Assembly: GCA_015062525.1 (NCBI GenBank)
Contig: SUUM01000002.1
Coordinates: 82,964-146,963, forward strand
DNA from: Alphaproteobacteria bacterium
GTDB taxonomy: Bacteria > Pseudomonadota > Alphaproteobacteria > Rs-D84
DNA length: 64,000 nucleotides
Direction: 5' to 3'
Translations under genes and position numbers: made by a program
Notes under the pieces: model-generated
Seen by the model: the letters and a program-made list of their open reading frames with translations, nothing else
Database searches by the model: none
Told to the model about the DNA's origin: nothing
Part shown: positions 2,378 through 50,618 of the stretch, one piece after another
Layout: every line of letters starts with the position of its first letter
Position numbering within the stretch: position 1 is the first letter of the stretch

Positions 2378-2380
2378 ACT

Positions 2381-5050: not shown

Positions 5051-5057
5051 CAATTTA

Positions 5058-21075: not shown

Positions 21076-21495
21076 ATGTTAAACGGTGTTCGTATTTATG
21101 CATCAGACACAATATGGCGCCAAATCCTGACCGACTTTGGGGCAACTGTTTTGGACGCACCAAATCCCACGGATATAAACTTTGACGATTTGAATGTTTC
21201 TGGGCCATTAACCCCAATGGAATTAAAATCATTGATATTGAACGCTAACGATGATGCGGCTGTTTTGCGTGATGTATTTGGGGCGGATGTGTCCTTGTCG
21301 CGGGTTCCGGCTCAAATCGTGGTTGCCTTGCATAAATCAGGTGGCATGACCGGCAATGAATTAAAGGCGGCATTGGGCTATGCGCCCGATGTTGCAACAC
21401 ACACAATTGATACCGCAATTTATCAGTTGCGTCGTACATATGGACGTGGATTTATCGTTAACACAAATGGGGTATATCGCATTGGCAAACTATAA
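21076..21495 (+). CDS. Hypothetical protein
   Basis: 139-aa ORF; no motif recognised. Confidence 0.4.
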   Translation: MLNGVRIYASDTIWRQILTDFGATVLDAPNPTDINFDDLNVSGPLTPMELKSLILNANDDAAVLRDVFGADVSLSRVPAQIVVALHKSGGMTGNELKAALGYAPDVATHTIDTAIYQLRRTYGRGFIVNTNGVYRIGKL

Positions 21496-22147: not shown

Positions 22148-22316
22148 ATCCCTGGATTTCAGCGGGTTTGAAAATATTATCTTGACTTTTATCTGAATTT
22201 GTGATATTATATAACACATAAACAGCACAAATTCTGTCCACAACACGCGTTGTGGTTTTTTTATTCCCCATGTATTTTCTGCATGGGTTTTTATTTTTTA
22301 ACAATAGGGCCATCAA

Positions 22317-22733
22317 ATGCAAATGACATTAATAAAAAATCCAGACACGTCTGGGACTTCAAACATGGCATATAAAATCGCGCGGGTTGTCTATGCGCAA
22401 ACGGGTGGGGCATCGTTGCCATTGGTATGTGCATTTACATCAATGATAAAAAATTTATCAGACGCATCGGGCGTTGCGATATCTGATTTGATTGGCGATA
22501 AAACAATATTTCCGGCCCTGGGGGATTCGGATATAAATCATGTACGTCTGCATGTGCCGGCACAAAATCGTGCATTTCAAATGTGCGTACGTACGGCGTA
22601 TCGGATGCTGATGGGGCAACTGCCGGACAGTTGTTATGGCGCCACGCGTTTTCATTACTCGGATGAAATACCCGCATGGGCAACATCGCGTGGATACATT
22701 GCAGATATAGATGGCATATTATTTTATTTGTAA
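22317..22733 (+). CDS. SleB/Hydrolase_2-type cell-wall hydrolase (phage endolysin-like)
   Basis: IARVVYAQTGGASL... and ...GATRFHYSDEIPAWA resemble the conserved Hydrolase_2 ends. First gene of the phage-like cluster. Confidence 0.45.
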   Translation: MQMTLIKNPDTSGTSNMAYKIARVVYAQTGGASLPLVCAFTSMIKNLSDASGVAISDLIGDKTIFPALGDSDINHVRLHVPAQNRAFQMCVRTAYRMLMGQLPDSCYGATRFHYSDEIPAWATSRGYIADIDGILFYL

Positions 22734-22744
22734 TGGTCATATTC

Positions 22745-22942
22745 ATGAAACGAATAATACGCGGTGGATACCTGTCTGGGTATCGTACATACATAATTTC
22801 TGCAACGGGTATTTTGTCAGCCATTGGTGCATACCTGGTTGGCGATACAGATTTGTTCACAATGTTGCAGGCAATATTTACATTGGCTGGAATATATTTT
22901 CTGCGCCGTTCAAACGAAACCAAAGGAAAAAATAATGGATAA
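22745..22942 (+). CDS. Small two-TM membrane protein (holin-like)
   Basis: Two hydrophobic helices and a charged C-terminus, immediately after the putative endolysin. Confidence 0.35.
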   Translation: MKRIIRGGYLSGYRTYIISATGILSAIGAYLVGDTDLFTMLQAIFTLAGIYFLRRSNETKGKNNG

Positions 22943-23591
22943 CATCCCAGAAAAATTTCGCAACAATGATGGAACATTGAATACAGATGCGTTAATGCGA
23001 TCTTATAATGAATTGGAAAAAAAGATTGGCACAATGGTATCGATTCCAAATGAAAATTCAGATGATGCTGCGCGCCAAAAATTTAATCGTGCAATTGGTG
23101 TTCCGGACAGTGCATCTGAATATCCGACCAATGAATTATATGATGATGAAAATCTGCGTCAAAAATTTTTTGAAATAGGTTTAACAAAACACCAGGTGGA
23201 AAAAATTTATGATATAGCGAACGATTTTTTATCACCAGTAATTTCAGAATTGTTTGCCGCGCGTGATGATGTATCTGCGATGAATGAATTAAAAAATTTC
23301 TTTGGTGGCGATGAAAAAATGCTAGATGCATTGCGTGCGATAAACACATTTGGTGAACGTTTTTTACCACAAGATGCATTTGAATCATTGTGCGCCACAC
23401 CCCAGGGAATTCAAAGCGTGTACAAGATGATGCAATCAATGGAACCAAATATTAAAACAGACAAAAACGAAAATGAAAATTTATCAGATTCTGATTTGCG
23501 TCGCATGATGCGTGATCCAAAATATTGGCGTGATGGTGATACAGAATACATTCGAAAAATAGAAAACGGTTTCAAAAAATTGTATTCATAA
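22935..23591 (+). CDS. Putative phage head scaffolding protein
   Basis: N-terminal MDNIPEKFRNNDGTLNTDALMRSYNELEKKIG matches the IPEKF..DG..D.DAL.KSY.ELEKK scaffold signature of podovirus-like phages. Acidic and helical. Confidence 0.5.
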   Translation: MDNIPEKFRNNDGTLNTDALMRSYNELEKKIGTMVSIPNENSDDAARQKFNRAIGVPDSASEYPTNELYDDENLRQKFFEIGLTKHQVEKIYDIANDFLSPVISELFAARDDVSAMNELKNFFGGDEKMLDALRAINTFGERFLPQDAFESLCATPQGIQSVYKMMQSMEPNIKTDKNENENLSDSDLRRMMRDPKYWRDGDTEYIRKIENGFKKLYS

Positions 23592-23703
23592 TTTACAATA
23601 ATGCACTTTCTGCTTTACTAAGTTTTGTAATTACGATAAAATGTAATCAAGAACAAAACAGATTTGTTCTGTCCAAAACTTTTTATATTGAAGGAGAGAA
23701 AGA

Positions 23704-24165
23704 ATGGCATTCTTGTTTAAAAGAAAAACAGCAAAGAAAGTAGTTGCTGAAAAACCAGCGGCAAAACCAGCAGCAAAGAAAGCACCTGCAAAAAAAGTAG
23801 CTGCAAAACCAGTTGCGAAAAAAGCACCTGCTAAAAAAGTGGCTGCAAAACCAGTTGCGAAAAAAGCACCTGCAAAGAAAGTAGCGGCAAAACCAGTTGC
23901 AAAGAAAGCGCCTGCAAAAAAGGTAGCGGCAAAACCAGTTGCAAAGAAAGCACCTGCAAAAAAAGTAGCGGCAAAACCAGTTGCAAAGAAAGCACCTGCT
24001 AAAAAAGTAGCTGCAAAACCAGTTGCGAAGAAAGCACCCGCTAAAAAAGCAGCGGCAAAACCAGTTGCGAAAAAAGCACCTGCAAAAAAAGTAGCGGCAA
24101 AACCAGCTGTTAAAAAAGCATGTGCAAAAAAAACATGTGCAAAAAAAGTTTGCAAGAAAAAATAA
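23704..24165 (+). CDS. Lys/Ala-rich tandem-repeat basic protein (histone H1-like)
   Basis: ~9 copies of the 14-aa unit [14 protein letters not shown] (42-nt DNA repeats at 23790-24110); Cys-containing basic C-terminus; terminator at 24179-24200. Confidence 0.65.
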
Positions 24166-24380
24166 TATCAATTATTAACCCCGCATCTGCGGGGTTTTTT
24201 AATAAAAGTATCAGTCAGATATTTGCGCAGGTCTGACTGATATTTTTTATGGATAATCCGCACCTGCGGACCCTAAAACTTTTTGTCTGATGGCGCATTT
24301 TATGCACAACCAAAATACAAAATATTTTGCGGTGCCGTACATTGGCACCTGTGTTTAATTTTATACCAAAGGATTTTTTT

Positions 24381-25202
24381 ATGTCTGTTTCCATCGATAA
24401 TGTATTTGTGAAACAATTCGAGGCTGATGTTCATTTAGCGTACCAGCAAATGGGCACAAAACTGCGTTCCACGGTTCGCAGTAAATCGGGTGTCGTCGGT
24501 GCATCCACTACATTTCAAAAGGTTGGTCGTGGCACGGCCAGCACCAAATCACGTCATGGTATTGTGCCTGTGATGAATCTGAATCACGAACCGGTTGAAT
24601 GTATGTTGGCTGATTATTACGCGGGCGATTGGGTTGACGCATTGGATGAATTAAAGGTAAATATTGATGAACGTCGTGTTGTTGCATCTGCGGGCGCATA
24701 TGCCCTGGGGCGCAAGACCGATGAATTAATCGTGTCGGCCATGAACAATGCAACGGCAAATGTTGGAGATTATTCAACTGGTCTGACCAAAGATTTGATT
24801 TTATCGGCGGTCGAAGTCTTGAACACTAACGACGTCCCAGATGATGGTCGTCGTTTTGCGGTTGTTGGCGTACGCCAATGGAATGAACTGTTGTCAATGG
24901 ATGAATTCGTATCTGCCGATTACGTAGGTGATGCGTTGCCATTGTTGAACGGGGGCGTCGCACGCAAATGGTTGGGCATTACATGGGTTCTGTATAACGG
25001 TCTGCCGGGCACAGATACAAATCGCGATTGCTTTATCTATCACGCATCCAGCATCGGTCATGCCTGTGGCCAGGAAGTCAAAACGGATATCTCGTGGCAT
25101 GGTGAACGCGCTGCACACTTTATCAGCAACAGCATGTCCCAGGGTGCGGTCTTGATTGACGGCGATGGCATTGTCCGCGTTAAATGTTCGGATGCTGAAT
25201 AA
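24381..25202 (+). CDS. Putative phage major capsid protein
   Basis: The only call basis is its position immediately after the scaffold gene and its size (274 aa). Start at MSVSIDN after AAAGGA. Confidence 0.45.
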   Translation: MSVSIDNVFVKQFEADVHLAYQQMGTKLRSTVRSKSGVVGASTTFQKVGRGTASTKSRHGIVPVMNLNHEPVECMLADYYAGDWVDALDELKVNIDERRVVASAGAYALGRKTDELIVSAMNNATANVGDYSTGLTKDLILSAVEVLNTNDVPDDGRRFAVVGVRQWNELLSMDEFVSADYVGDALPLLNGGVARKWLGITWVLYNGLPGTDTNRDCFIYHASSIGHACGQEVKTDISWHGERAAHFISNSMSQGAVLIDGDGIVRVKCSDAE

Positions 25203-25242
25203 CACACTTTGAAATTCAACTTTTAACCAAAAGGAAACACAT

Positions 25243-25476
25243 ATGGCTTTTCAGAACAAGAATTTATCTGTCATCGCGTATGCAAATGGATTTACATTGT
25301 GGCATTATTGCGGCACATCTGAAACATTGGCAACAATTAGTGCCAACGGATATTTCAATGCGGTCAAAACATTGATGAACATTGGTGATATTATCATCAT
25401 CAACGCATCAGATAACACCGCGATTAAGAAAATTAATATCACAGACCTGAATGTGACAACGGTTGCATTGGCATAA
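25243..25476 (+). CDS. Small phage-cluster protein
   Basis: ORF with RBS; context only. Confidence 0.3.
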   Translation: MAFQNKNLSVIAYANGFTLWHYCGTSETLATISANGYFNAVKTLMNIGDIIIINASDNTAIKKINITDLNVTTVALA

Positions 25477-25557
25477 CATACTTTTTTTTCTCCTTTCCTT
25501 TAGGGGTCGGCAAAAATTTGCCGACCTTAAAACATTTATAAAACCAAAGGTGCAAAA

Positions 25558-26076
25558 ATGCTTACTAAAATAGACTTATGCTCTATGGCGTTATTAAAAA
25601 TTGGCGAAAGCCCAATTCAATCATTAACCGATGACAGCGCACCTGCGAAACTGGCACGTACATTGTTTGATACTGTGATGGATTCACTTATTTCCGCCCA
25701 CCCATGGCGTTTTGCAACCCAAGTTCTGGATTTAACCAAGAACACAGACGGCGATTTTTTAATTCCGACCAACGTTTTGCGCGTGTTAAAAACATCTGGA
25801 CGCATCAACGGAAACCGGGTTGTCTGCGATGGTGACACAACAACAATAACAGCCGTTGTAAAAACGTCCCCAGAATCATATCCGGGATATTTTGTATCCC
25901 TGGCGGCGACACGCCTGGCGATGGAATTTTGTATTCCGTTAATGGGGGATCAAACAGTATTTCGCATGTTGGCGGCATTGTATGAAACAGAATTACAAAC
26001 CGCAAAGTTCATAGACAGTACAACTGCCACATCTGATGGTATATCTGATTTTTCATTAATTAACGCACGCTTTTAA
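25558..26076 (+). CDS. Phage structural protein, hypothetical
   Basis: Context only. Confidence 0.35.
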   Translation: MLTKIDLCSMALLKIGESPIQSLTDDSAPAKLARTLFDTVMDSLISAHPWRFATQVLDLTKNTDGDFLIPTNVLRVLKTSGRINGNRVVCDGDTTTITAVVKTSPESYPGYFVSLAATRLAMEFCIPLMGDQTVFRMLAALYETELQTAKFIDSTTATSDGISDFSLINARF

Positions 26077-26093
26077 TTTGGGGGATTTATCAC

Positions 26094-27809
26094 ATGGCAG
26101 ATTTTATTAAAACACAAAATTCATTTGCAAATGGTGCGGTTGCGCCCGAATTCTATGCGCGCGATAATATCAACGGCCTGTCCAGATTGGAAAATATGGA
26201 TGTTTTGGCGGGTGGCGGTCTGTCGCGTCGGTGCGGATTGCGTGATATAATTTCGTTGCGGGGACCGGCACGTTTAATACCTTTTTCCGTGTCAGATGGC
26301 GAAGAGTATATTCTTGCAATAACTGATTTTTATATTGGTATATACCAAGACGGCATACGCACTCAATCGCTAAAGACCCCATGGTCATATAATGATGCCA
26401 TGCATCTGCAATATGCCCAGCGTTTTGGAACAATGATATTTGTACATCCTGATTATCAGCCACAAACATTGTATAAATCAGGCGACACATTTTGTTTTCG
26501 TGAATTTGAATTTTCGCGCAACGATGCGGATATGACGGTTAATATGCCATTTGTAAAGTTTGATGATGCATCCGACATAAAAATAACGGTCAGCGCCCAT
26601 TCATCTGGCAATAACTATGCAACGTTCACCACAAACGCAGATTTTTGGACGCCTGAAAATGTTGGCGGTCGTCTGCATTTATTGACACGTCAATGGCAAA
26701 TCACAGAATACATCAGTCCGACACAGGTCGTTGTTCATACAAATGGCACCTATACTTTGCCGAACGCGGCTGTATCTGATTGGCGCGAGTGTGCATTCAG
26801 CACGCGTCGCGGTTGGCCACGCAGTATTACATTTCACCAAGATAGATTGGTGTTTGGTGGTTCGCGTTCATGGCCGGCGGGAATATGGCTGTCGCGTGTT
26901 GGACAACATAATAACTTTGACACTGGTACTGGTCTGGATGACGAAGCGATATTTATATCTTTATTATCGGCACAACGTCAACAAATTTGCACCGTCGTCA
27001 GCAGTGATTCATTACAAATCCTGACCAATGTCGGTGAATGGGCTATTTCCAGCAAGCCTTTAACCCCATCTGTTGTTGATATTAAACAACACACATCAGT
27101 CGGTTCGTATGTTGCGCGTTATCTGCCACCCCAGAAAATCGAAGGCGCAACCGTATTTGTATCTACATCCGGTCATGATATACGCGAATTGGCATTGGAT
27201 GAACTGGGTGAAAAATATAACGCAAATGATTTATGTGCATTTTCCAAGCATTTGCTAAATAATCCGATTGATATGGCATATAATGATTCCACGCGCCAAT
27301 TGTTTGTTGTATTGGCGGATGGCACAATGTCTGTTTTGAACCAGAATGCGGCCCTGGGGATTTCTGCATGGGGCGCGTATAAAACCCGTGGTGAATTTTT
27401 ATCGGTTGCGGTTTGTGATGGGCATACGTATGTTGCAACACACCGTGAAGATGGTGTGCATTTGGAAAGATTTGATGCAGATACAATGACGGACGCAGGC
27501 AAGTACAGTTTTTCTTTTTATGCATCTGGTCTGCCTTTGCGCGCGTCCGGGCATAATGCCACGCGTCTGCGCCTGCGCAAGATAGTGGCGCGTGTTCTAA
27601 ACACTAAATCCATATCAATAAACAATCATCAAATAACCCTGCCAAATGAAATATATGCCCCCAACCATCCTGGATTCAGCGGCGATGTTTCCGTTGGTCT
27701 GTTGGGAACCAAGAACGATTGTATGACGCCAACATGGACAATTCATGGCAACGAAGATTATCCAATAACGGTACTTTCTGTCAGTTTGCACGGTTGGTAC
27801 TCGGTTTAA
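26094..27809 (+). CDS. Large phage structural protein (tail/tubular-type?), hypothetical
   Basis: 571-aa ORF downstream of the capsid gene; context only. Confidence 0.4.
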   Translation: MADFIKTQNSFANGAVAPEFYARDNINGLSRLENMDVLAGGGLSRRCGLRDIISLRGPARLIPFSVSDGEEYILAITDFYIGIYQDGIRTQSLKTPWSYNDAMHLQYAQRFGTMIFVHPDYQPQTLYKSGDTFCFREFEFSRNDADMTVNMPFVKFDDASDIKITVSAHSSGNNYATFTTNADFWTPENVGGRLHLLTRQWQITEYISPTQVVVHTNGTYTLPNAAVSDWRECAFSTRRGWPRSITFHQDRLVFGGSRSWPAGIWLSRVGQHNNFDTGTGLDDEAIFISLLSAQRQQICTVVSSDSLQILTNVGEWAISSKPLTPSVVDIKQHTSVGSYVARYLPPQKIEGATVFVSTSGHDIRELALDELGEKYNANDLCAFSKHLLNNPIDMAYNDSTRQLFVVLADGTMSVLNQNAALGISAWGAYKTRGEFLSVAVCDGHTYVATHREDGVHLERFDADTMTDAGKYSFSFYASGLPLRASGHNATRLRLRKIVARVLNTKSISINNHQITLPNEIYAPNHPGFSGDVSVGLLGTKNDCMTPTWTIHGNEDYPITVLSVSLHGWYSV

Positions 27810-27836
27810 CACACTATAAAATACAAGGACATAAAC

Positions 27837-28184
27837 ATGGGACAAGTTGTATCAGATATAACAGAAATCTTGGATTACAAAGACGCTAAAAAGGCGGCAA
27901 AAAACCAACGCCAGGAAATTATTGCACAAATGGCGGCGGATGAAGCGGAAAAAACAAATCTGGTGAAAAAGGCATTGGCAACCCAGCGTGCAAAATACGG
28001 TGCATCTGGCATGCGCACCGCCGGGATAACCGAAGGTGCGGTGTTGCGACGCTTGAAATCGGAAACCGCCGCCCCGTACGAAGAAAAACGTCGCAACAAT
28101 ATGACAAAATTAAAAAACGCGCGTGCTAAAAAGCCAAATTTATTGAAATCTTTACTATCCAGATTTGATGATTTGGTTGGTTAA
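27837..28184 (+). CDS. Basic hypothetical phage protein
   Basis: Context only. Confidence 0.3.
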   Translation: MGQVVSDITEILDYKDAKKAAKNQRQEIIAQMAADEAEKTNLVKKALATQRAKYGASGMRTAGITEGAVLRRLKSETAAPYEEKRRNNMTKLKNARAKKPNLLKSLLSRFDDLVG

Positions 28185-28203
28185 TATGTGATGGGGGTAT
28201 ACT

Positions 28204-28755
28204 ATGTATAAAATATCTTATATCACAGACGGCTTGACAACGGAATTTGCATTCTCTTTTCCTTTTTTCCAGGTCGCAGATGTTCGCATTGCAATAAATG
28301 ATTCTGTTGGGGATGGTGCTTTTAATTACACTATTATGCCAAATGAAGATTTTTCTGGCGGAAATGTTGTTTTTGATATTGCGCCCCCCGCGGATACAAA
28401 ATTAGATATCTTTCGTCAAATATCGTTATCGCGCACAATTGATTACCAACCCACCCACAGAATAGACCCCGAAGATTTGAATACAGACTTTAACTTTCTG
28501 TTATCCGCGTTTCGGGATTTACATTCTGTGAACGTTGACCTGGTTGAATGGGCGAACATCCATGATGATATTAAATCGTTAATAAATTACACACACGATG
28601 TCATCAACGATAAATTGGGTGGTGGTGCAGTATTGGGGTTGTATCGGAATCTGGTTGGTGTATTGGAAAATGCGCTGCCTAAACTGATTAACGATTACGG
28701 TTCAATCACAGAACCCGCCCCGAATGAAAACCGCGATGATTACGGAATTTTATAG
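28204..28755 (+). CDS. Hypothetical phage protein upstream of terminase
   Basis: Context only. Confidence 0.35.
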   Translation: MYKISYITDGLTTEFAFSFPFFQVADVRIAINDSVGDGAFNYTIMPNEDFSGGNVVFDIAPPADTKLDIFRQISLSRTIDYQPTHRIDPEDLNTDFNFLLSAFRDLHSVNVDLVEWANIHDDIKSLINYTHDVINDKLGGGAVLGLYRNLVGVLENALPKLINDYGSITEPAPNENRDDYGIL

Positions 28756-29341
28756 TTTTTTAGATGAATGGAATCGTGTTCTGGGGTTGCAGACACCCGC
28801 GCATCACCGTCAAATTATGGAATTTTTATACGGTGTTTTGTGTGAAGCGCCACATCGTGGATTGTTGATGGCGTTTCGTCATTCGGGCAAATCAACGGTT
28901 GTTGGTGTGTTTGTGGCGTGTGTATTATACCTGCGTCCACAAACCAGAATTTTGATACTGTCTGCGGAATCGGGACTGGCATCGCGTATGGTATCGCACA
29001 TTCGGCATATATTGGAAAATCATCCGTGGTGTGCACATTTGGTACCACAAAATAAGAAAGAATGGGCATCCACCCGTATAACGGTTAATCGCCCAATCGG
29101 TATTCGCGAACCATCTGTTATTTGCCAGGGATTACATGGCAACATAACCGGTCTGCGTGCAGATATTATCATATGCGATGATGTGGAAGTTCCAAACACA
29201 TCCAACACCCCCCAGAAACGCGAACAAATGCGTGAACGTTTGCGGGAATTGGATTTCATCTTGTCCCCAAATGGGGCGATGATTTATATCGGCACGCCAC
29301 ACACGCACGATACAATATATCGAACCGCGGACGACGATTAA
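28724..29341 (+). CDS. Terminase large subunit, N-terminal ATPase fragment
   Basis: Walker A AFRHSGKST and Walker B IIICDDVE. Ends ...IYIGTPHT (motif III region), then a stop. Confidence 0.7.
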   Translation: MKTAMITEFYSFLDEWNRVLGLQTPAHHRQIMEFLYGVLCEAPHRGLLMAFRHSGKSTVVGVFVACVLYLRPQTRILILSAESGLASRMVSHIRHILENHPWCAHLVPQNKKEWASTRITVNRPIGIREPSVICQGLHGNITGLRADIIICDDVEVPNTSNTPQKREQMRERLRELDFILSPNGAMIYIGTPHTHDTIYRTADDD

Positions 29342-29979
29342 TTCATACTGCTGATAAATGTGCGCAGTTTTGCCAACAATTCCGCACCCGCATCACCAAA
29401 CATAGGCAAATAAGTTTCATATTCTGGCATATCGGCTTGCACTTGGGCACGCACACGTTCTGAAATCGGATTAGCAATAATTTCATTCGCCACATCCCAC
29501 AGTCTATAGGCATTATAGGTTTGTTTAACAATGTTCCATTTGTCTAATAGATTGGGTCGCGCATTTAATATTGCCCGAATGGAATTCTGCCATTCTTCGC
29601 CAAAGTTGCGTACCAGTTCCAATGACATAAACCTGTCCAGGCCTGCCTGATCTGGTGTAAATTCTTGCAGGGCATTTTCCAGTTCGCGCCATTGATTTGG
29701 GTTCAGTTTAATTGTTGCAACATCTTCGGCGGTCATCATTCCACCATATGGTAAAAGTTCTGAATCTATTGAATCCATAGCAGTTTTGCCACTGCGCAGG
29801 TTTTCAATATGTTGTACCAATAATTTACCCGTTGGCATGTCGCGCAGTTCCTTGATTACATCATCGGTTGCATCATTCACAAAAATTGGATTAACTGTTG
29901 CCCAACCGCCAATAATAACATGTTCTTGGCGATACAGGTTTAATAATCTTAATGCGATTGCGCTGGTTTTAACGTTCAT
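29338..29979 (-). CDS. Hypothetical protein (part of the opposite-strand insert module)
   Basis: 213-aa ORF; no motif recognised. Confidence 0.4.
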   Translation of the reverse strand: MNVKTSAIALRLLNLYRQEHVIIGGWATVNPIFVNDATDDVIKELRDMPTGKLLVQHIENLRSGKTAMDSIDSELLPYGGMMTAEDVATIKLNPNQWRELENALQEFTPDQAGLDRFMSLELVRNFGEEWQNSIRAILNARPNLLDKWNIVKQTYNAYRLWDVANEIIANPISERVRAQVQADMPEYETYLPMFGDAGAELLAKLRTFISSMN

Positions 29980-30003
29980 AGGTTCTCTCTCCGTCTGTGT
30001 GTG

Positions 30004-31017
30004 TTATTCCATAACAATCATAACAACCTTGTGCATGGTCTGGGCTGTGATTTTTTCATCAGGTGATGACATCTGACCATAAACTTTGCCCTTGGAATCC
30101 TGGCGTACACTGACGATTTGTGCGTTGATTGTTGTTTCATCATCCAATGCGTCAAAGTCTGTATCAATCGCCACCGCCAAATCACCAGGCTGTGCCGGGG
30201 TTGCAGAATCTGCAAACACATACGATTTTTCTGGTATAAAACCGCCCAAACGCTTGGAATTTGGTATAACCGCATAGATACCCGCGCGCCCCTCTAATGT
30301 CATGGGGGCGACAATCATAGTTTTGTCAGATTTTTTGAATGCGATTACTTTGCCCGCGGGTGTACCGAACACAGGCACCAGTTTTTTGCGTGCGCTGTCA
30401 TACAATTTTGCGCCATACAATCCGCCATGCATATCCATGCCCGACATTGGATTACCCGGCACCAGTACAGACTTAACACGTTCTTTGACCTTGCTGATAT
30501 GCTTGTTCAATTCGCCGGATTTATACAGGTTCGCGATTTTATCGAACAATTCTTCGGCACCCATTGCAAATGATTTTGCCAATGGTTCAATTTCATTTTG
30601 ATAAATTTCGCGTTGTCCAACCTCAATCTTATGATAAACGGACAGCGTCATACCGGCATCTTTGGCGGCCTGGGCGATTGTTTTGCCGGTTTGCTGACGA
30701 ATTTTACGCAGACCGCTGCCAAATACCTTCAGACCGCTGTTTTCATTGTCTGACATACGGCGTTTAATTTCGCTTTGCCATTGGTCTGCAACATCATCGG
30801 ATTCCTTGATGAAAATATCAGACAGTTTGCACCCCAGAATATTACAAATATTCAGCAACTGCTTCTGATTCAGGCGGCGCACACCCTTTTCAATCTTGGA
30901 AACAGCGGACAAAGACAACCCAGCACGACGTGCCAATTCGGTCATCTTCATACCATTCGCCAAACGAATGTTGCGTATATTATTTGGAAATATAATTTCT
31001 TCTTGGGCCATGGGCAA
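30004..31017 (-). CDS. CI/LexA-like repressor with two XRE-type HTH domains and an S24 peptidase-like C-terminus
   Basis: Two HTH_3-like segments (IRLANGMKMTELARRAGLSLSAVSKIEKG and LRKIRQQTGKTIAQAAKDAGMTLSVYHKIEVG). The C-terminal VPGNPMSGMD motif is GDSM-like, with downstream Lys residues. Confidence 0.6.
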   Translation of the reverse strand: MPMAQEEIIFPNNIRNIRLANGMKMTELARRAGLSLSAVSKIEKGVRRLNQKQLLNICNILGCKLSDIFIKESDDVADQWQSEIKRRMSDNENSGLKVFGSGLRKIRQQTGKTIAQAAKDAGMTLSVYHKIEVGQREIYQNEIEPLAKSFAMGAEELFDKIANLYKSGELNKHISKVKERVKSVLVPGNPMSGMDMHGGLYGAKLYDSARKKLVPVFGTPAGKVIAFKKSDKTMIVAPMTLEGRAGIYAVIPNSKRLGGFIPEKSYVFADSATPAQPGDLAVAIDTDFDALDDETTINAQIVSVRQDSKGKVYGQMSSPDEKITAQTMHKVVMIVME

Positions 31018-31088
31018 ACTCCTAAATGACTAATACTTGACAAAATAATAGTCAATTTAAGTCCCCCGCGCAAGCAAATAATTATAAA

Positions 31089-32654
31089 TTACAATGGCAT
31101 ATCATCTGGGATTGCGTCTGGGTCAATTGCGGTCGGCATAGAATCCGTATCATTTGCCAATTGCGCCGCCGTAATTGTTGGGGCGGGCTGTGCAAATTCA
31201 TTTTCGCCACGTGCCTCGAATTCATCCAGATTGTCGAACAAACTGTAATCGCCAAAGAATGCAGTACGCACGGTTTCGGGTCGTCCATGACGGTTTTTCC
31301 CGATAATGATATCGGCCTTGCCACGTGCGCGTTCCATTCTGCTTTGCCAAGATTCGCGCATTTTCTCGTTAACGTTATTTGATATGCGTTCGGACGGGTC
31401 GCGATTCTGCAAATAGTACTCTTCGCGGTACGTGAACATAACAATGTCCGCGTCCTGTTCAATGGAACCAGATTCACGCAAATCAGACAGCATTGGTCGC
31501 TTATCATCACGCGATTCCACGCTGCGCGACAACTGGGACAGGGCGATAACCGGCACATCCAATTCCTTGGCCAGCATTTTTAACCCTCGTGTAATTTCGG
31601 AAATTTCCTGAACACGGTTGTCATTGTGTTTTCCACCGGGCGACGTCATCAATTGCAAATAGTCGATAACAATCAACGCAATTCCACCATGTTTGCGCGC
31701 CAAACGTCGCGCACGCGTACGCATCATGGGTACCGACATACCCGGTGTATCATCAATAAACAACGGCACCTGACCAATTGCGGCGGAATACTGTGACATC
31801 TTCAAGAAATCTTCATCGGTCAGCGTCCCTTCGCGCATGGCGGTTGCGGGAATTTTTGATTGCGACGACAGTACACGCGCCGCCAATTGGGATGCCGACA
31901 TTTCAAGGCTAAAAAACACCACCGCGCCCTTGTAATTTTTATTTGCGCGACCAAAGGCGATTGCCTGGGCTGCATTGAATGCGATATTCATAGCCAACGT
32001 GGTTTTACCCATTGCCGGTCGTCCCGCGATAATAATCAGGTCCGAATGGTGTAATCCGCTGATTGATTTGTCCAACGCATTCAGCCCCGTTGTCAGACCG
32101 GACAATTGTCCATCTGCCTTGTATGCAATTTCCGCCTCGGCCAGGGCGCTTTGCAATGCATTTGAAATAGATGTAATTTCGCGTTCAGATGTTCCCGTTG
32201 TTGCCATATCGAACAACTTTTGTTCTGCGACCTCAATCTGACGCGCCACGGGGTTGTCTAAATCTTCTACAAATGCCTTGTCCGATATATCTTGGGCCAG
32301 GGCGATTAAATCACGGCGCAGTGCATGTTCATATACAATGCGTCCATATTGTTCAACATTAACAACGGTTGCGCCGGCGCTGGTCAATTGGCTTAAATAG
32401 TCCACGCCACCAACGGATTCCAGAACACCCTGTTGGTCCAGATAATTTTTCGCGGTAATAATATCAAACGGAATACCGGCGGCAAATTGTTTTTCCGCCA
32501 ACTTATAGATTTCCTGATGCGCAGGATGTGAAAAATGTTTGTAATTCAGGAATTCGCCAACCCGTTCCAACGCACGATTATTCATCAGCACTGCGGCCAA
32601 AACCGCCTGTTCTGCTTCCAGATTTGTTGGTAATGTTTTGGGGGTAAAATCCAT
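31089..32654 (-). CDS. DnaB-family replicative helicase
   Basis: N-terminal LEAEQAVLAAVLMN, Walker A GRPAMGKTTLAMNIA, DYLQLM, and a C-terminal acidic extension. Start placed at MDFTPKT; the ORF is open to 32864. Confidence 0.8.
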   Translation of the reverse strand: MDFTPKTLPTNLEAEQAVLAAVLMNNRALERVGEFLNYKHFSHPAHQEIYKLAEKQFAAGIPFDIITAKNYLDQQGVLESVGGVDYLSQLTSAGATVVNVEQYGRIVYEHALRRDLIALAQDISDKAFVEDLDNPVARQIEVAEQKLFDMATTGTSEREITSISNALQSALAEAEIAYKADGQLSGLTTGLNALDKSISGLHHSDLIIIAGRPAMGKTTLAMNIAFNAAQAIAFGRANKNYKGAVVFFSLEMSASQLAARVLSSQSKIPATAMREGTLTDEDFLKMSQYSAAIGQVPLFIDDTPGMSVPMMRTRARRLARKHGGIALIVIDYLQLMTSPGGKHNDNRVQEISEITRGLKMLAKELDVPVIALSQLSRSVESRDDKRPMLSDLRESGSIEQDADIVMFTYREEYYLQNRDPSERISNNVNEKMRESWQSRMERARGKADIIIGKNRHGRPETVRTAFFGDYSLFDNLDEFEARGENEFAQPAPTITAAQLANDTDSMPTAIDPDAIPDDMPL

Positions 32655-33522
32655 GTCAAATTCCTTTACTTCTATGCCAATGGTATATGAAAAAAATGCT
32701 TTTTCAACGCCTTTTTTGCGTGGGTATAAATTGCTGAAAATTCCGATAGTTAATGCAGCGGGCACCCCTGCGTGGCCCGAAGTTTTTCCCATTGCGCGCA
32801 TTGACCAATTGCGTGAAACGGTTGGCGCGCGCCACTTTTCATCGCAAATGATGTTGGAATGCACACCACTTGAACGTGCACGCCTGGACCCAGGTGGGGT
32901 TAAATTTTATGATGCCGAATTCGACACGCGCACCGCACATATTGGTGAATTTCACATAACGGGTATGACCCTGTATTGGGACCCTGCAACCGGTCGTCGC
33001 CATCGCGACGGCAGTGCCTGTGTATTATTATATCGTGATGATAAAAACCGCCATATTTTCATTCATGATATTTTATACCTGACCGTATCAGATGACGAAA
33101 TGTTCCCATTGTCGCGCCAGTGCGATATGGTCCTGGATTTTATGTGCGCGCGTTCTTTACATCGCATAACACTAGAAACTAATGGCCTGGGAATCGGGGT
33201 GCCTGAAATTATGCATGATTGTGCGACAAAACGTGGTGCAAACATTTATGTGAACAGAATCCAAAATCACAAATCAAAATCAGATCGTATTTTGAATGCA
33301 ATTGAACCGGCGCTATCAACGGGGCGGCTGCACGCGCACACGCGCGTACAAAACACACCCCTGATGGCGGAAATGTTGGGCTGGTCGCCGATTGGCGCGC
33401 CGGGCATTCACGATGACGGTCTGGACGCAGTCGCCGGCGCGATTGCAGACACGCCAACCCCCGTTCGCGCAATCGGCACCCAAATTCAAACATTCACCGC
33501 CAATACAAATTTCAAGATATAA
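32638..33522 (+). CDS. Terminase large subunit, C-terminal fragment (post-motif-III linker plus RNase-H-like nuclease)
   Basis: TPAWPEVFPIARIDQLRETVGARHFSSQMMLE matches the WPE.FP...L..R..(I/V)G...F..QY.Q.P element. Nuclease motifs YWDPATG...DGSA and GIHDDGLDA are present. Confidence 0.7.
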   Translation: MGVKSMSNSFTSMPMVYEKNAFSTPFLRGYKLLKIPIVNAAGTPAWPEVFPIARIDQLRETVGARHFSSQMMLECTPLERARLDPGGVKFYDAEFDTRTAHIGEFHITGMTLYWDPATGRRHRDGSACVLLYRDDKNRHIFIHDILYLTVSDDEMFPLSRQCDMVLDFMCARSLHRITLETNGLGIGVPEIMHDCATKRGANIYVNRIQNHKSKSDRILNAIEPALSTGRLHAHTRVQNTPLMAEMLGWSPIGAPGIHDDGLDAVAGAIADTPTPVRAIGTQIQTFTANTNFKI

Positions 33523-33539
33523 AACCAAAAGGAACCAAA

Positions 33540-34775
33540 ATGTATCAAAATTTACAAAATATGTATAAACGTGCATTGGATATGCGAGCACCATGGATTT
33601 CTCGCTGGGATGCGGCGCGCCGCTATGCCATGCCGTCGGCCGATGATGATGCGGCAACATTATTTGACGCAACCGCCATGGATGCATCGGATAATCTGGC
33701 GGCATCGATTTATACATTGCTGACACCGCCCGAATCAATGTGGTTGCAATTGGTGGGCGAAAGCGACTTGTCCCAGAACGCAGATTATGCCACATCTGTC
33801 TTGCGTGCGAATTTGAACGACTCAAATTTTTATACGACAATTCACCAATGTTATATGGATTTGGTCGTGTTGGGGACAGCGTGCCTGTTTATGTCAGAAA
33901 GCCCAATTGGCGCATCATCTGCATTTACATTCACGGCAATCCCAATGAACGATATTGCGATATTACCCAACGCGGTATTCCACACAACATCCATGTCCGC
34001 CCGTGAAGTCATGGAAAAATATCCCACATGGACACCACCGGCAAACCTGCGCGACACAATAAATCGCGACCCCGAAACCCCATTAAAATTGGTGCAAAGC
34101 CTGGTTGGCACAGATTTTGTAGCATGGTTGGACGTTGGTGGCGATATTGAAAATAATATTGTATCCACAGGCACATTTGAAACGAACCCATACATTATAT
34201 TCCGCTGGGCTGTGTCATCTGGTGAATTATATGGACGCGGTCCGGTCTTGCGCGCATTGCCAGACATTAAAACAGCGAACAAAGTCGTTGAACTGGTATT
34301 AAAGAACGCAACAATCGCGGTATCTGGCATCTGGATGGCGGACGATGATGGTGTTATAAATTTGCAGAACATAAACCTGACACCTGGCGCGATTATTCCC
34401 AAGGCTGTGGGTTCATCGGGCCTGACGCCGTTAACCAGTGGTGCGAACTTTGATGTGTCCCAGTTGATATTGCGCGACCTGCGCGAACGCATCCGCCATG
34501 CATTATTGGCGGACCGATTGGGACTGCTAAGTGAAAAAGAAATGACCGCCACAGAAATCATGGCGCGCAACGCCGACATGATGCGAATCTTGGGGGCGAC
34601 ATACGGTCGCCTGATGCATGAATTCATCCGTCCCCTGTGCGACCGCGGACTTCAGATACTTGCACGTCGCGGAATAATTGAACCAATCCGCCTGAACGGT
34701 GATGCAGAACTAAAATACATCGCGCCAATCGCACAAATGACGGCATTGGAAACTGTTATCGGGGGTAATTTATGA
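33540..34775 (+). CDS. Putative phage portal protein
   Basis: 411 aa; position immediately 3' of the terminase is the only call basis. Confidence 0.45.
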   Translation: MYQNLQNMYKRALDMRAPWISRWDAARRYAMPSADDDAATLFDATAMDASDNLAASIYTLLTPPESMWLQLVGESDLSQNADYATSVLRANLNDSNFYTTIHQCYMDLVVLGTACLFMSESPIGASSAFTFTAIPMNDIAILPNAVFHTTSMSAREVMEKYPTWTPPANLRDTINRDPETPLKLVQSLVGTDFVAWLDVGGDIENNIVSTGTFETNPYIIFRWAVSSGELYGRGPVLRALPDIKTANKVVELVLKNATIAVSGIWMADDDGVINLQNINLTPGAIIPKAVGSSGLTPLTSGANFDVSQLILRDLRERIRHALLADRLGLLSEKEMTATEIMARNADMMRILGATYGRLMHEFIRPLCDRGLQILARRGIIEPIRLNGDAELKYIAPIAQMTALETVIGGNL

Positions 34776-34975
34776 CAGATATATCATTAAACTACGCGCG
34801 TTGCTTTGGCGCGCCATCGGGTCGTGCGGTCTTGGAACACCTGCGCAAAATAACGATTGAACGCACATTGGGTCCCAACACATCGGACAACGAATTGCGC
34901 TGGGCCGAATCCCAGCGCGCCTTGGTTCGCCAAATCGAAGCACTTATTGCGCGGGGCAGGGGGGACAAATCATGA
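34772..34975 (+). CDS. Small hypothetical protein
   Basis: ATGA overlap with the portal gene. Confidence 0.3.
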   Translation: MTDISLNYARCFGAPSGRAVLEHLRKITIERTLGPNTSDNELRWAESQRALVRQIEALIARGRGDKS

Positions 34976-35208
34976 TAACATTGGACTTTCTGCGCAACAG
35001 TTGGTTTTTGATAGTGTTCATTGGTGGGTTGGTCTATTGGGCCGCCCGCCAAGATTTATCGGTTGCCGAACACGAAACATTTGACAGTCGCATAACATCA
35101 CTTGAAAATCGCACGACGATATTGGAAACAGGTATCGGCCAAATTCAGATAAAAATCGACGATATCAAAGAAGACCTGACACTAATCAAAGGCGCAGTTA
35201 TTAAATAA
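34972..35208 (+). CDS. Small membrane protein with a coiled-coil tail
   Basis: N-terminal TM (WFLIVFIGGLVYWAA). Confidence 0.35.
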   Translation: MITLDFLRNSWFLIVFIGGLVYWAARQDLSVAEHETFDSRITSLENRTTILETGIGQIQIKIDDIKEDLTLIKGAVIK

Positions 35209-35269
35209 TCCCCAAAATTCCCCTCCTGTGGAGGGGTGGCAATCTCGGCGTAGCGTAGCGAAGACGGAT

Positions 35270-35475
35270 GGCGGGGAGGATTCTTTATTTTTCTCAACAC
35301 AACGAAATTTTTCGTCGGAACTTTTCAAGCAATCAATCCCCTTCGCTGGCGAAGGGGTGCCCACAGGGCGGGGTAGTGGTAATATATTGCTATTAATACT
35401 CACCGCCCTTGGCGGGGAGGATTCTTTATTTTTCTCAACACAACGAAATTTTTCGTCGGAACTTTCAGACAATCA
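35270..35475. repeat. Two ~60-65-bp direct repeats (141-bp period) with intervening GC hairpins
   Basis: ggcggggaggattctttatttttctcaacacaacgaaatttttcgtcggaacttt occurs at 35270 and at 35411. The palindromes cccctcctgtggagggg and ccccttcgctggcgaagggg lie nearby. Confidence 0.7.
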
Positions 35476-35501
35476 GAAAACCGGCAAAAGGAATAATAAA
35501 C

Positions 35502-35978
35502 ATGCCTATTCAGATTCAGTTCCGACGCGGCTCATCCGCCGAACACGAAACATTTACCGGTGCGCCCGGCGAAATCACGGTTGACACCACAAATAACACG
35601 CTGCGCGTTCATGATGGCGAAACGCCCGGTGGCACCACACTTGCGAAACGCAGCGAAATCCCCGACCTGACGCCACTTGATTATATTGTAGAATCTGGTC
35701 GCACAGACACCATGTGGTGGCGCAAATACAAAAGTGGCGCTGTTGATATGGGCGGTCATTACACAGGTAATGCAACCACAATCACATTACCCGTAAAACT
35801 GGCAAATACGAATTATGAAGTCCTGATAACCAAGAACAGCGCCCCATCTTATTGGGCGACAACGCATATAACCCTTGGTTCGCGCAGTGCAGATAAATTT
35901 GTTGTTGCCGCATATGGCGACAGTGCCAGCATACGCATAGCATGGCAAATAACGAATGCCATTGCCGCCAGCGAATAA
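35502..35978 (+). CDS. Phage tail-fibre-like protein (conserved N-terminal IQ(F/L)RRG...GE...DT..L..GDG module)
   Basis: MPIQIQFRRGSSAEHETFTGAPGEITVDTTNNTLRVHDGETPGG; terminator at 35978-36004. Confidence 0.55.
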   Translation: MPIQIQFRRGSSAEHETFTGAPGEITVDTTNNTLRVHDGETPGGTTLAKRSEIPDLTPLDYIVESGRTDTMWWRKYKSGAVDMGGHYTGNATTITLPVKLANTNYEVLITKNSAPSYWATTHITLGSRSADKFVVAAYGDSASIRIAWQITNAIAASE

Positions 35979-36003
35979 AAAAACCGGGTCCCCCCGGTTT
36001 TTA

Positions 36004-37143
36004 TTAGAATTTAAGATGCTTCAGATGTCGGAACAACCGTTGAAAACTAGATTCATGTTTCTTTGATTTATAGTTATACAAGTCATTAACATGTTGTGCG
36101 GAATAATTTATAACAAATTCGCAATAATCAAACATCAGGCGGTTTGAATTTTCTTCTGAGACATGTTTTACAGGTGTCATATTATCCAGAATATTCAAAA
36201 CTTCATTTATCTTTGTGGATAATTTATATCGTTGTTCTGCAATACGCTTTAATTCATCAGATTGTTCTAATGTCGTATTGTATTGCGACACAATTTCATC
36301 CGCAATTTGTTCTGCTGTTTTCTTGGTAAAGAAATTTCGGCCCGAAAAATTTGCACTTTCTTCAACTAAGACATTTTCAGGTGTGATATATCCGCTACCA
36401 CCAAATCGGTCATAATTATATACGGGGATTCCCATTGCCATGGCGTACTGTACTGTTTTACCAATAGACACAACCACATCGTGTCTTGCAAGTACATCTG
36501 GCACAATATCAACTGGATTTTTACCACCATAAACAATAGTATCGTAACCCTGATTTTCCAGTATTTGTAATGCGGCACTTAATTCACAAGGAATATGGTT
36601 TGATATAACAGCGATACTTTTTAGCGGGCGCGAATAATCATGTTTATAATCAAAAAAATAATCTGGCGCAGTATTTGGCAACACATGAATAATATCACCA
36701 TCAATATCATATTCGTTTATGAACATGTTTTTAGTTTTTGGGGTTAAAGTTAAAAATAAATCCACAGACTTTGTAAAGAACAACGGTTTGTCAATTGGTA
36801 AAATTTTACTGATACAAGAGTTTATCAATCTGTCATATTGCAAACCTCTGCGAATCAAGTATGGCAATATGGGCCAATGGTGTGCCCAAACAATGTCGAT
36901 ATGTATATCTGTTGGAAAATCAAAAACGTTGAATAATTTTACATTATTTCTGGCAAAGAATTGTTTTGTTGATTCATTGGTAAGTGCGCCAACACAAAAC
37001 ACATTATACCCCAAAGAGTGTAAATAGTTCCCGATTTCTGCCGTATATTTTACACCCCCATGCAAACCATCGGCATAGAAAATAGTAATCAGAACGTTTT
37101 TCACGATTTTATCCTCTTTTGGTATTGTATAAATTTTGTACAA
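36004..37143 (-). CDS. Putative glycosyltransferase (GT-B-like), hypothetical
   Basis: 379-aa ORF in an operon with GT4 and GT2 genes; weak GT-B-like C-terminal pattern. Confidence 0.4.
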   Translation of the reverse strand: MYKIYTIPKEDKIVKNVLITIFYADGLHGGVKYTAEIGNYLHSLGYNVFCVGALTNESTKQFFARNNVKLFNVFDFPTDIHIDIVWAHHWPILPYLIRRGLQYDRLINSCISKILPIDKPLFFTKSVDLFLTLTPKTKNMFINEYDIDGDIIHVLPNTAPDYFFDYKHDYSRPLKSIAVISNHIPCELSAALQILENQGYDTIVYGGKNPVDIVPDVLARHDVVVSIGKTVQYAMAMGIPVYNYDRFGGSGYITPENVLVEESANFSGRNFFTKKTAEQIADEIVSQYNTTLEQSDELKRIAEQRYKLSTKINEVLNILDNMTPVKHVSEENSNRLMFDYCEFVINYSAQHVNDLYNYKSKKHESSFQRLFRHLKHLKF

Positions 37144-38254
37144 GTGCTGTTATCTGATCTAATACAACATAGGGGTTAAACCTATCTAAGTTCTGAAGCG
37201 CTATCGATTTCATTTTGTCAATGTTGATCTGATTGTGATAGACCTGAGACATTTTTACTGCTAAATCATTTGGGTTTTGTGGTTTAAATAATAAGCCTGC
37301 TTCTCCGTTCATTAAAATCTCTGCCACACCAGACTTTACATTTGAAGCTATATTCAATGTATTCAAGGCTTGTGCCTCTATCAACACGGTTGGCAATACC
37401 TCTCCAAAAGATGATAGGATATGGGCTAAAGCCCCCTTAACGTATCCGAAAGGATTGGGGACATTCCCCAAAAACACAACATGATTGTCTAGATGTAGCT
37501 GGTCAGTCAATTCTTCCCATTGTTGACGTAATGGACCATCGCCACACATGTACAACTTCACGTCAGGATAATTTTCTTGCTCTAGAAAAAGTTTAAAGCC
37601 CTTAATCAATGTTTCGTGGTCTTTATCTGTGTGCAATCTGGCAACTGATACAAAATATTTATGTGGTAATTCTGACATTTGTCCTTGTTCTACACGATTT
37701 TGTATAGATATAACATCAACAGGATTATAAATACATTCTATTTTATGTGCTAATTCAGGATGTTTAATAACAAAGTCGTTATAGAATGATTGGGATATGG
37801 CAACAATTTTGTGATAGGATTCTATATTTTTCATGTATTCAGGATTAGAAAAATATGCAGATATAGAACAATGTAAAAAAGCGATTTTGGGTCTGTTGAC
37901 TTTTTTTATCTGATTACAAAAACATCCATTAAAATAATCGATAACAATATCATATTGCCTTAACTGTCTGCAAAAACGAATTTTTTCTATACGTTTCCTC
38001 AGCCGCCAAATTTTTTTTTGTAAATATTTAGTTGGTCTGGGTTGCATGTGATAAAAAAAGCCATTGTCAAACAAATTTATATTGTTGTTTTGAAAGAAGT
38101 GTAAAAAACGTTTTTCTGTGACCTTGACGCGTGATATAACGCTAACTTCATACTTGTCATTATCTTTTAATAGTTCCAAGATTTGTAATAAACAAGTCTC
38201 TATCCCACCCGTTATTAGGTGGTGCATTAAGAAAACTACTTTTACTTTTGGCAT
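37109..38254 (-). CDS. Glycosyltransferase family 4 (GT-B)
   Basis: N-terminal HHLITGGIETCLLQ and C-terminal ...SFGEVLPTVLIEAQALNT...; 381 aa. Confidence 0.65.
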   Translation of the reverse strand: MPKVKVVFLMHHLITGGIETCLLQILELLKDNDKYEVSVISRVKVTEKRFLHFFQNNNINLFDNGFFYHMQPRPTKYLQKKIWRLRKRIEKIRFCRQLRQYDIVIDYFNGCFCNQIKKVNRPKIAFLHCSISAYFSNPEYMKNIESYHKIVAISQSFYNDFVIKHPELAHKIECIYNPVDVISIQNRVEQGQMSELPHKYFVSVARLHTDKDHETLIKGFKLFLEQENYPDVKLYMCGDGPLRQQWEELTDQLHLDNHVVFLGNVPNPFGYVKGALAHILSSFGEVLPTVLIEAQALNTLNIASNVKSGVAEILMNGEAGLLFKPQNPNDLAVKMSQVYHNQINIDKMKSIALQNLDRFNPYVVLDQITALVQNLYNTKRG

Positions 38255-48849: not shown

Positions 48850-49061
48850 AACACCGCCCAATCGGGCGGTTGTTTTTTATTATTTTGAACTAATATGATT
48901 GTTTGGTATCGCGCATCCGATTCATTTGCCTAAACGCAAATTTGGGATATCTTTTGTTATATCGGGGTTCAAAACAACTGGTGGTTGTATGACTCGATAT
49001 TCTGTTGTGTTTGTGCCAAAATACACATCATACATATTTTTATTTACAAGGGAATAAAATA

Positions 49062-50595: not shown

Positions 50596-50618
50596 TAGAA
50601 ACGAGGAGCTAAACAAGT

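Follow-up and report, generated by a model that had tools for sequence, protein, structure and literature searches.

How can a DNA-packaging motor be made from a gene that is cut in two by other genes on the opposite strand? The question is raised by a 64,000-nucleotide stretch of contig SUUM01000002.1 (the window), from a Candidatus Enterousia genome (order Rs-D84, a group with genomes of less than about 1 Mb). Here a compact cluster of T7-like phage structural genes carries its large terminase subunit (TerL) as two forward-strand open reading frames (ORFs), TerL-N and TerL-C. The roughly 3.3 kb between them are occupied by three minus-strand genes, which encode a 213-aa protein, a regulator with two helix-turn-helix (HTH) domains and the replicative helicase DnaB. 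Large terminases are among the strongest molecular motors, and a covalent ATPase-lid-nuclease chain is thought to be needed for coupling ATP to translocation. An earlier reading of the DNA alone (the original prediction) described the same ORF layout, which was confirmed, and left two interpretations: a mobile module inserted into the terminase gene, or a naturally two-piece terminase. The analysis described below supports the two-piece terminase and not the mobile module.

The five genes are as follows. Ratios of nonsynonymous to synonymous substitution (dN/dS) were estimated by the Nei-Gojobori method from pairs with dS of 0.05-1.5.

28724-29341, forward strand: TerL-N, 205 aa, RecA-like ATPase core; matches NF033889 (termin_lrg_T7) with 230.9 bits over positions 2-191 of 500
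29338-29979, minus strand: 213-aa protein, all alpha-helical; its stop overlaps the TerL-N stop; dN/dS 0.20
30004-31011, minus strand: HTH regulator, 335 aa, two XRE-type HTH domains (Pfam HTH_3, two stretches, 3e-20) and a C-terminal beta-rich domain; dN/dS 0.078
31089-32654, minus strand: dnaB, host-type replicative DNA helicase, 521 aa; identical to NCBI MBE6460600.1 ("replicative DNA helicase"); dN/dS 0.057
32653-33522, forward strand: TerL-C, ATPase lid subdomain and RNase H-like nuclease, with its own ATG; matches NF033889 over positions 222-500 of 500

The two halves of the terminase

When TerL-N and TerL-C are joined end to end, the resulting 494-aa sequence is colinear with intact relatives of 481-509 aa. 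The catalytic residues are in register, no motif is missing and about 13 surplus residues lie at the junction. The halves abut, with neither overlap nor duplication, and the claim that together they make one normal TerL of about 495 aa was borne out. The same picture was given by profiles: on PHROG 38 (terminase large subunit, 760 positions) TerL-N falls at 270-460 and TerL-C at 472-708. TerL-C alone reaches 85.7 bits against NF033889, which is under the whole-protein cutoff of 150 bits, and the Pfam family Terminase-T7_RNaseH-like matches it weakly.

A profile search of the PDB led to the T7 terminase gp19 (4bij, 8dgc) and placed the break just past motif III (T7 'GTPQTEMTLYKELED', around residue 215). 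The original prediction had rightly taken the end of motif III as the point of rupture. The break has now been assigned to the inside of the ATPase domain, between the RecA-like core and the lid subdomain, and not to the hinge between ATPase and nuclease. TerL-N ends 10-13 residues beyond motif III and TerL-C has about 13 extra residues ahead of the lid.

The elements of a T7-type TerL (gp19, NF033889) are all found in the same order: Walker A and B, motif III, lid and RNase H-like nuclease. In TerL-N the Walker A motif (FRHSGKST), Walker B with the catalytic glutamate (ICDDVEV) and motif III (IGTPH) are invariant or nearly so among 79 orthologues, and so are the nuclease motifs WDPA, ETNG and HDDGLDA of TerL-C among 70. 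The single continuous chain is the one feature that is absent. T7 gp19 and the close intact relatives are one polypeptide of about 480-590 aa, whereas the Enterousia TerL is encoded by two genes 3.3 kb apart, with their own stop and start in all loci. The ATG of TerL-C, with a purine-rich run resembling a Shine-Dalgarno sequence before it, is conserved in about 75 species and the stop codon of TerL-N is likewise kept. Both start codons at this end of the insert had to be revised, that of TerL-C from TTG 32638 to ATG 32653 and that of dnaB from GTG 32864 to ATG 32654.

Conservation of the split

One genome per GTDB species was scanned with TerL-N, which gave 189 relatives. The best 80 of these (identity 77-97%) are all Candidatus Enterousia or metagenome-assembled genomes (MAGs) of gut Alphaproteobacteria, and their loci were analysed together with four metagenome contigs and about 27 IMG/VR contigs carrying the split cluster. 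The closest match (97%), JBKSMY01 KS320-82, is an Enterousia of order Rs-D84 with an 876-kb genome, and the host genomes are reduced, at 0.75-1.0 Mb (PMC12306168). A separate listing of TerL-N homologues gave 828 matches, the best 120 of which are all 198-221 aa long, with identities of 76-96%.

Gene order, judged as far as each contig extends, is invariant: the host gene lplA is followed by hydrolase-scaffold-capsid-tubeA-tubeB-p115-fibN-TerL-N, then by the 213-aa gene, the regulator and dnaB on the minus strand, and then by TerL-C-portal-Bbp19-p78. Both this order and the chromosomal site are constant in all covered loci of the 80 genomes and the four metagenome contigs. The order is also constant in the IMG/VR contigs, down to identities of 70% for TerL-N and 74% for DnaB.

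The dN/dS of TerL-N is 0.097 and that of TerL-C 0.164, within a range of 0.06-0.28 for the cluster; the value for lplA is 0.145. ("With stop" counts for lplA, scaffold and capsid reflect over-extended 5' ORF calls in the queries and not pseudogenes.) Pairwise distances of the phage-derived genes correlate with those of dnaB and lplA with r of 0.47-0.82, which equals the covariation between host genes. The low dN/dS, the conserved motifs and this covariation together indicate that the halves are functional and that their vertical inheritance goes back beyond the radiation of the clade. That genomes of 0.75-1.0 Mb have kept some 10 kb of phage genes implies that the cluster is selected for. The original prediction had allowed that it would fail if the two pieces were pseudogene remnants; this is contradicted by the dN/dS of the halves (0.10 and 0.16). 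We are highly confident that the split is old, under selection and not mobile.

Two MAGs have two split-cluster contigs each, with a dnaB apiece (L014 and L018 in RGIG4147, L028 and L032 in T1900045332). Mixing of strains or species in the bins is more likely here than true duplication.

The genes between the halves

The assignment of the helicase to the DnaB family was upheld. The protein matches Pfam DnaB and DnaB_C (2e-100) and over its full length exceeds the cutoffs of the replicative equivalogs NF006606 (612.6 bits, cutoff 540) and TIGR00665 (508.4 bits, cutoff 385.25). It falls under the cutoff for phage_DnaB (403 bits against 498.65). Its dN/dS is the lowest among all genes analysed.

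The regulator had been called a CI-like, two-HTH repressor of the S24 type. The two HTH_3 domains are present and the N-terminal part has Foldseek matches to XRE regulators, but no Pfam or PDB sequence match to an S24 peptidase domain was obtained. The C-terminal beta domain, in a low-confidence AlphaFold2 (AF2) model, has weak Foldseek matches to the LexA C-domain (6a2s, E 1.6e-3) and to lambda CI (2ho0), and its candidate catalytic serine is replaced by threonine in most orthologues. As the fold matches are weak and the serine is mostly threonine, the S24 label is unproven.

The 213-aa protein, for which the original prediction had offered no function, likewise gave no match in Pfam, PHROGs, NCBIfam or PADLOC. 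For its AF2 model (predicted local distance difference test score, pLDDT, 77), Foldseek gave no match in PDB or BFVD. It has 1288 homologues, the best 120 of which all come from this lineage. The ideas that it is the missing small terminase subunit (TerS) or a recombinase are unsupported, there being no family or fold match to either.

No recombinase, transposase or other mobility domain was found in the three genes with Pfam, PHROGs, NCBIfam or PADLOC, and a search for anti-phage defence annotation gave nothing specific. The original prediction had suggested that short direct repeats might lie at 29335-29345 and 32640-32700; at these positions no direct or inverted repeats (att sites, target-site duplications) beyond chance were seen. 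None of the three genes has a homologue in the related clusters with intact TerL that are described below. The marks of a mobile element (a recombinase, terminal repeats or a target-site duplication, variable presence) are thus lacking and the insert occurs in every covered locus. By these signs in the sequence, the 3.3 kb contain not a mobile element but a host operon, encoded on the opposite strand.

The junctions

At the two ends of the operon the viral and host genes are in very close contact, and the dnaB end contains two further features.

32652-32655: CATG, in which the divergent starts of dnaB (ATG 32654) and TerL-C (ATG 32653) overlap by 2 nt
about 32680-32718, minus strand: nucleotide-invariant stretch GTATATGAAAAAAATGCTTTTTCAACGCCTTTTTT, TerL-C codons 10-22; putative dnaB promoter/leader

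The helicase start does overlap the 5' end of TerL-C, as had been claimed, but by the 2 nt in CATG and not by about 230 nt. This overlap is kept in nearly all of about 75 loci. The exceptions are L017 and L018, with CATTATG (starts adjacent, without overlap), and L028, with TATG (without the usual dnaB ATG). At the other end TerL-N and the 213-aa gene converge: in 51 of 79 loci their stops overlap, in the others the gap is at most 10 nt, and no terminator lies at this junction. Junction length on the 3' side ranges from -64 to +10 nt between lineages.

The normalised entropy of synonymous sites was scanned in 15 genes, 13 of them well sampled. In TerL-C codons 8-29 it drops to 0.03-0.06, compared with a gene mean of 0.71 and about 0.7 elsewhere, and this frozen window is the sole one in the 13 well-sampled genes. 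Low-entropy windows in scaffold and capsid were set aside because they are likely to be non-coding 5' extensions of the ORF calls. A promoter-like TTGAAA-16-TACCAT lies within the frozen stretch (32707-32680, minus strand); it ends 25 nt upstream of the dnaB ATG and is followed by an AAGGA Shine-Dalgarno sequence. Scans for promoters and terminators gave no enrichment over shuffled sequences, and only this site, which coincides with the frozen stretch, was used. We infer that the promoter and leader of dnaB are embedded in the 5' end of TerL-C (its first 30 or so codons).

In one Enterousia species the cluster has decayed (L021, 9626-14339) through two internal deletions, one from capsid 88-291 through fibre adaptor 1-99 and one of TerL-C 97-289 together with the portal. 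TerL-N, the dnaB module and TerL-C codons 1-96 are retained. The presence of the dnaB promoter inside the 5' end of TerL-C would explain the survival of this part of the gene.

Related clusters with intact TerL

A megablast of 24000-36000 against GenBank phages gave no match, and at the protein level the best identity to the TerL of a cultured phage is about 27-28%. The nearest intact TerLs are about 50% identical and occur in uniform, compact T7-like clusters of 10-13 kb. Such chromosomal clusters were seen in L167 (8862-19447), L136, L104, L107, L169 and about 50 further IMG/VR loci. They have the order portal-(Bbp19)-scaffold-capsid-tubeA-tubeB-...-fibre-TerL-hydrolase or its circular permutation TerL-hydrolase-portal-... 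On the long contigs (L167, L169) they are flanked by ordinary host genes and are without integrase or replication genes. In L167 a divergent 205-aa HTH repressor-like gene adjoins the cluster. The TerLs of these widespread clusters likewise do not exceed about 28% identity to that of any cultured phage. These compact clusters may represent an undescribed family resembling gene transfer agents (GTAs). Compared with them, the Enterousia cluster has the hydrolase at the front, the portal and Bbp19 behind TerL-C and the host operon inside TerL. Read in this way from gene order, it belongs, with its genes rearranged, to a wider group of compact T7-like clusters that appear to have been domesticated.

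L085 (10001-11480) and L086 (10001-11441) also have a cut TerL of this family, with the break at the same site, about 12 residues past motif III. Here the two ORFs, of 210 aa and 271-284 aa, are adjacent with an 8-nt overlap (ATGGGTGA) and there is no insert. The host is an unrelated bacterium (1.47 Mb contig, about 49% GC) and a variable PKFPE repeat linker is found at the junction. Within 10 kb no capsid or portal genes were detected, in which respect these loci also differ from Enterousia. Such an adjacent two-ORF TerL is a plausible intermediate toward the split, although it may be a frameshifted remnant, as only two near-identical strains have it.

The surrounding cluster

The region of about 22300-36000 is a compact structural cluster of the T7/BPP-1 type, bounded upstream by an lplA/lipB-like host gene (21380-22147) and downstream by glycosyltransferases. 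Its other genes are listed here.

22317-22733, forward strand: cell-wall hydrolase-like gene, 138 aa, first gene of the cluster; weak or faint Pfam Hydrolase_2 match in orthologues
22824-23591, forward strand: scaffolding protein of the T7 capsid-assembly type; Pfam Phage_T7_Capsid 5.9e-8; syntenic in all loci
23704-24165, between scaffold and capsid: Lys/Ala-rich protein, 153 aa; weak Pfam HC2 (histone H1-like)
24327-25202, forward strand: major capsid protein; phrog_3437 major head protein 5e-72; identity 81-97% across species; dN/dS 0.064
25558-26076 and 26094-27809, forward strand: tail tube A and tail tube B/nozzle; Pfam Tube 5e-6, phrog_394 3e-31, phrog_376 7e-83; dN/dS about 0.17 each
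27837-28184, forward strand: conserved 115-aa protein (p115), homologous to the gene after tubeB in intact clusters
28204-28755, forward strand: tail-fibre N-terminal/adaptor protein (fibN), 183 aa; phrog_1640 tail protein 6.5e-10; overlaps the TerL-N start
33540-34775, forward strand: portal of the T7 head-to-tail connector type; Pfam Head-tail_con 5e-82; dN/dS 0.066
34772-34975, forward strand: Bbp19-like protein; Pfam Phage_Bbp19 3e-12
34972-35208, forward strand: 78-aa membrane/coiled-coil protein (p78), followed by a repeat-bearing spacer
ending at 35978, forward strand: Mtd_N-type tail fibre; Pfam Mtd_N 1e-15; end of the cluster

In the related clusters a homologue of the hydrolase comes after intact TerL; the Enterousia gene is conserved in 59 loci (dN/dS 0.28). 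In other species the Lys/Ala-rich protein has been replaced or shows little conservation. Downstream of its gene lies the region's best terminator-like hairpin (24177-24196). Some lineages have 1.3-2 kb of extra cargo between TerL-C and the portal (L101, 8584-10644; L138, 6383-7704), which in L101 consists of an 80-aa ORF, a 285-aa ORF and a Cys-rich 162-aa ORF on the opposite strand.

The distal fibre region is variable between strains, with 0, 1 or 2 additional fibre ORFs in L001-L004. The spacer upstream of the Mtd_N-type fibre gene contains a perfect 56-nt direct repeat (35269-35324 and 35410-35465, 141 nt apart), and a perfect 18-nt repeat encoding AEHETF (35065-35082 and 35538-35555) is common to the 78-aa and fibre genes. 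These repeats may be recombination sites for exchange of the fibre cassette; no reverse transcriptase or diversity-generating retroelement was found near them. GC content in the window alternates between blocks of about 30-35% and of 40-50% (noted at 1-7000, 36000-39000 and 49000-59000), with the phage cluster and dnaB in the higher-GC blocks. The first ORF of the block downstream of the cluster (36004-37143) is weakly glycosyltransferase-like (Pfam E 6e-4); clear glycosyltransferases occupy this place in orthologous loci.

Neither integrase nor phage replication genes were detected in 22300-36000 or in L001-L004, where only structural, terminase and hydrolase genes and the host module are present. 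The lack of both makes the cluster a candidate GTA (viriform). Its gene content and inheritance match the genomic definition of GTAs (PMC12946183): like them it is a compact chromosomal structural cluster without integrase or replication genes, inherited vertically under purifying selection throughout a clade. FpGTA of Faecalibacterium (Firmicutes) has been described as the first podovirus-like GTA-like element (PMC12946183), and no second one was met in the literature searched. RcGTA and BaGTA are siphovirus-like, whereas the Enterousia cluster is T7-like. We know of no GTA with a split terminase or with an essential host gene inside its cluster, and no description of this locus was found in the literature on Enterousia, split terminases and podovirus-like GTAs.

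Proposed explanation and alternatives

The explanation that we favour is as follows. The cluster derives from a T7/BPP-1-like podovirus and has been inherited vertically. Fixation of a host dnaB operon in the surface loop past motif III preceded the radiation of the genus. TerL-N, the ATPase core, and TerL-C, the lid and nuclease, would be translated separately and reassemble non-covalently, with the lid packing on the core as in T7 gp19. The resulting two-chain motor would fill the T7-like capsids encoded by the same cluster, which would behave as a GTA. The viral and host systems are by now interlocked through the shared CATG, the putative dnaB promoter in TerL-C and the convergent overlapping stops without a terminator. 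For this explanation as a whole, including a functional two-chain terminase in a GTA-like element, we estimate a probability of roughly 0.62 from the sequence comparisons.

Several points weigh against it or limit it. TerL-C evolves faster than TerL-N (identity 56-86% compared with 76-97%). A search of the window for a TerS homologue, with the small ORFs located ahead of intact TerL in relatives as queries, found none. An intact TerL may exist elsewhere in these genomes. That dnaB is the sole and essential copy is suggested by its family scores, the small genome size and its lowest dN/dS. The dN/dS values themselves are approximate, as dS is near saturation for many pairs. Finally, no frozen stretch comparable to that in TerL-C occurs within dnaB, the regulator or the 213-aa gene, so that a conserved promoter for TerL-C within dnaB was not found. 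TerL-C and the portal may instead be transcribed by read-through from the upstream late genes, antisense over the module. This is speculation, with which the terminator-less convergent junction would fit.

Some of these points suit a different fate for the halves, in which the cluster persists in some role other than that of a DNA-packaging particle, with the two pieces co-opted separately, for instance as an ATPase and a nuclease that each act alone, or with only one of them serving in particle biology. The unrecognised TerS, the faster evolution of TerL-C and the stand-alone TerL with the same split site but no structural genes in L085 and L086 all lean this way. The halves, however, are always accompanied by portal, capsid, scaffold and tail genes within a single conserved cluster, precisely the residues required of a packaging ATPase and nuclease are kept in both, and the lid in TerL-C has no obvious role in the absence of the ATPase core. 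We therefore consider co-option unlikely. Joining of the pieces into one TerL, at the RNA or protein level (group I or II intron, trans-splicing, split intein, translational bypass), has documented parallels. In gut jumbo phages (Jug) terL lies in two or three pieces and is spliced by group I introns (PMC12880540). The herpesvirus UL15 gene comprises two exons with UL16 and UL17 on the opposite strand of the intron (PMC3079670); there too a terminase ATPase gene is interrupted, lineage-wide, by about 3.5 kb with opposite-strand genes. UL15 is rejoined to one protein by the spliceosome, whereas the Enterousia halves have no detectable intron and their own start and stop, and split terL genes in phages contain same-strand group I introns, homing endonucleases or inteins, which are removed so that one protein results, and not an opposite-strand host operon. 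Over 28600-33600, on both strands, no Rfam family was matched at gathering scores and none at E<=1, which excludes recognisable group I/II introns. The 10-13 residues after motif III and the 13 or so before the lid are too short for the halves of a split intein. As the insert is also full of three conserved minus-strand genes, and the conserved ATG and stop favour separate translation, joining appears extremely improbable; the original prediction had also discounted an intron or intein.

A single gene might alternatively be restored in the DNA, by programmed excision of the 3.3-kb segment in the terminal, particle-producing cells; the skin element in sigK is an example of such an intervening element. 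Loss of dnaB would be tolerable in GTA producer cells, which lyse, and since the halves are co-directional a precise deletion would by construction fuse them in frame. Against this, the module has no recombinase or match to any such family, the junctions have no direct repeats and their variable length is hard to square with a fixed recombination site. TerL-C has also kept its own ATG and Shine-Dalgarno-like run, and TerL-N its own stop, in about 75 species. Rearrangement is accordingly regarded as highly improbable. The last alternative, a recent insertion of a mobile, replicative, repressor-carrying module that left the terminase pieces as inactive remnants, goes back to the original prediction. 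A repressor-like gene beside a helicase does resemble a replication-lysogeny module of a phage or plasmid, and an ORF-dense, opposite-strand insert looks like cargo. The arrangement is nevertheless fixed in the covered loci of 80 species and in divergent IMG/VR contigs, at a constant site next to lplA. The DnaB is of the host chromosomal type, the halves are under purifying selection (0.10-0.16), repeats and recombinase are lacking and the module genes are absent from intact clusters. In L021 the module has stayed put while phage genes around it decayed. The chance that this alternative is correct is close to nil. What is left of the choice offered originally is the naturally two-piece terminase, which is supported by the invariant split, purifying selection, intact motifs and the conserved ATG of TerL-C.

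A further step is possible, in which the interleaving is itself functional and the dnaB operon and particle genes are wired together through the shared starts, the dnaB promoter in TerL-C and transcription that is convergent and antisense, with no terminator. We consider this doubtful, but its consequences would be considerable. Once the particle operon was activated, transcription would run antisense across dnaB and halt chromosome replication in producer cells, while continued transcription of dnaB would keep the expression of TerL-C and the portal low. The cluster would be anchored against deletion because the control region of an essential gene lies in its sequence. With a two-chain motor added, a domesticated virus would here have found a new solution in both regulation and architecture.

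Conclusions

A two-chain terminase cut between the RecA core and the lid, in at least 80 species, would give studies of the mechanism and engineering of packaging motors a split site that nature has already provided. Essential housekeeping genes nested in viral genes are rare in bacteria, and the locus would be such a case, architecturally convergent with herpesvirus UL15. It points to an undescribed T7-like element of the GTA type in a widespread, uncultured gut lineage, to which some 10 kb of viral genes, kept in so small a genome, imply a benefit.

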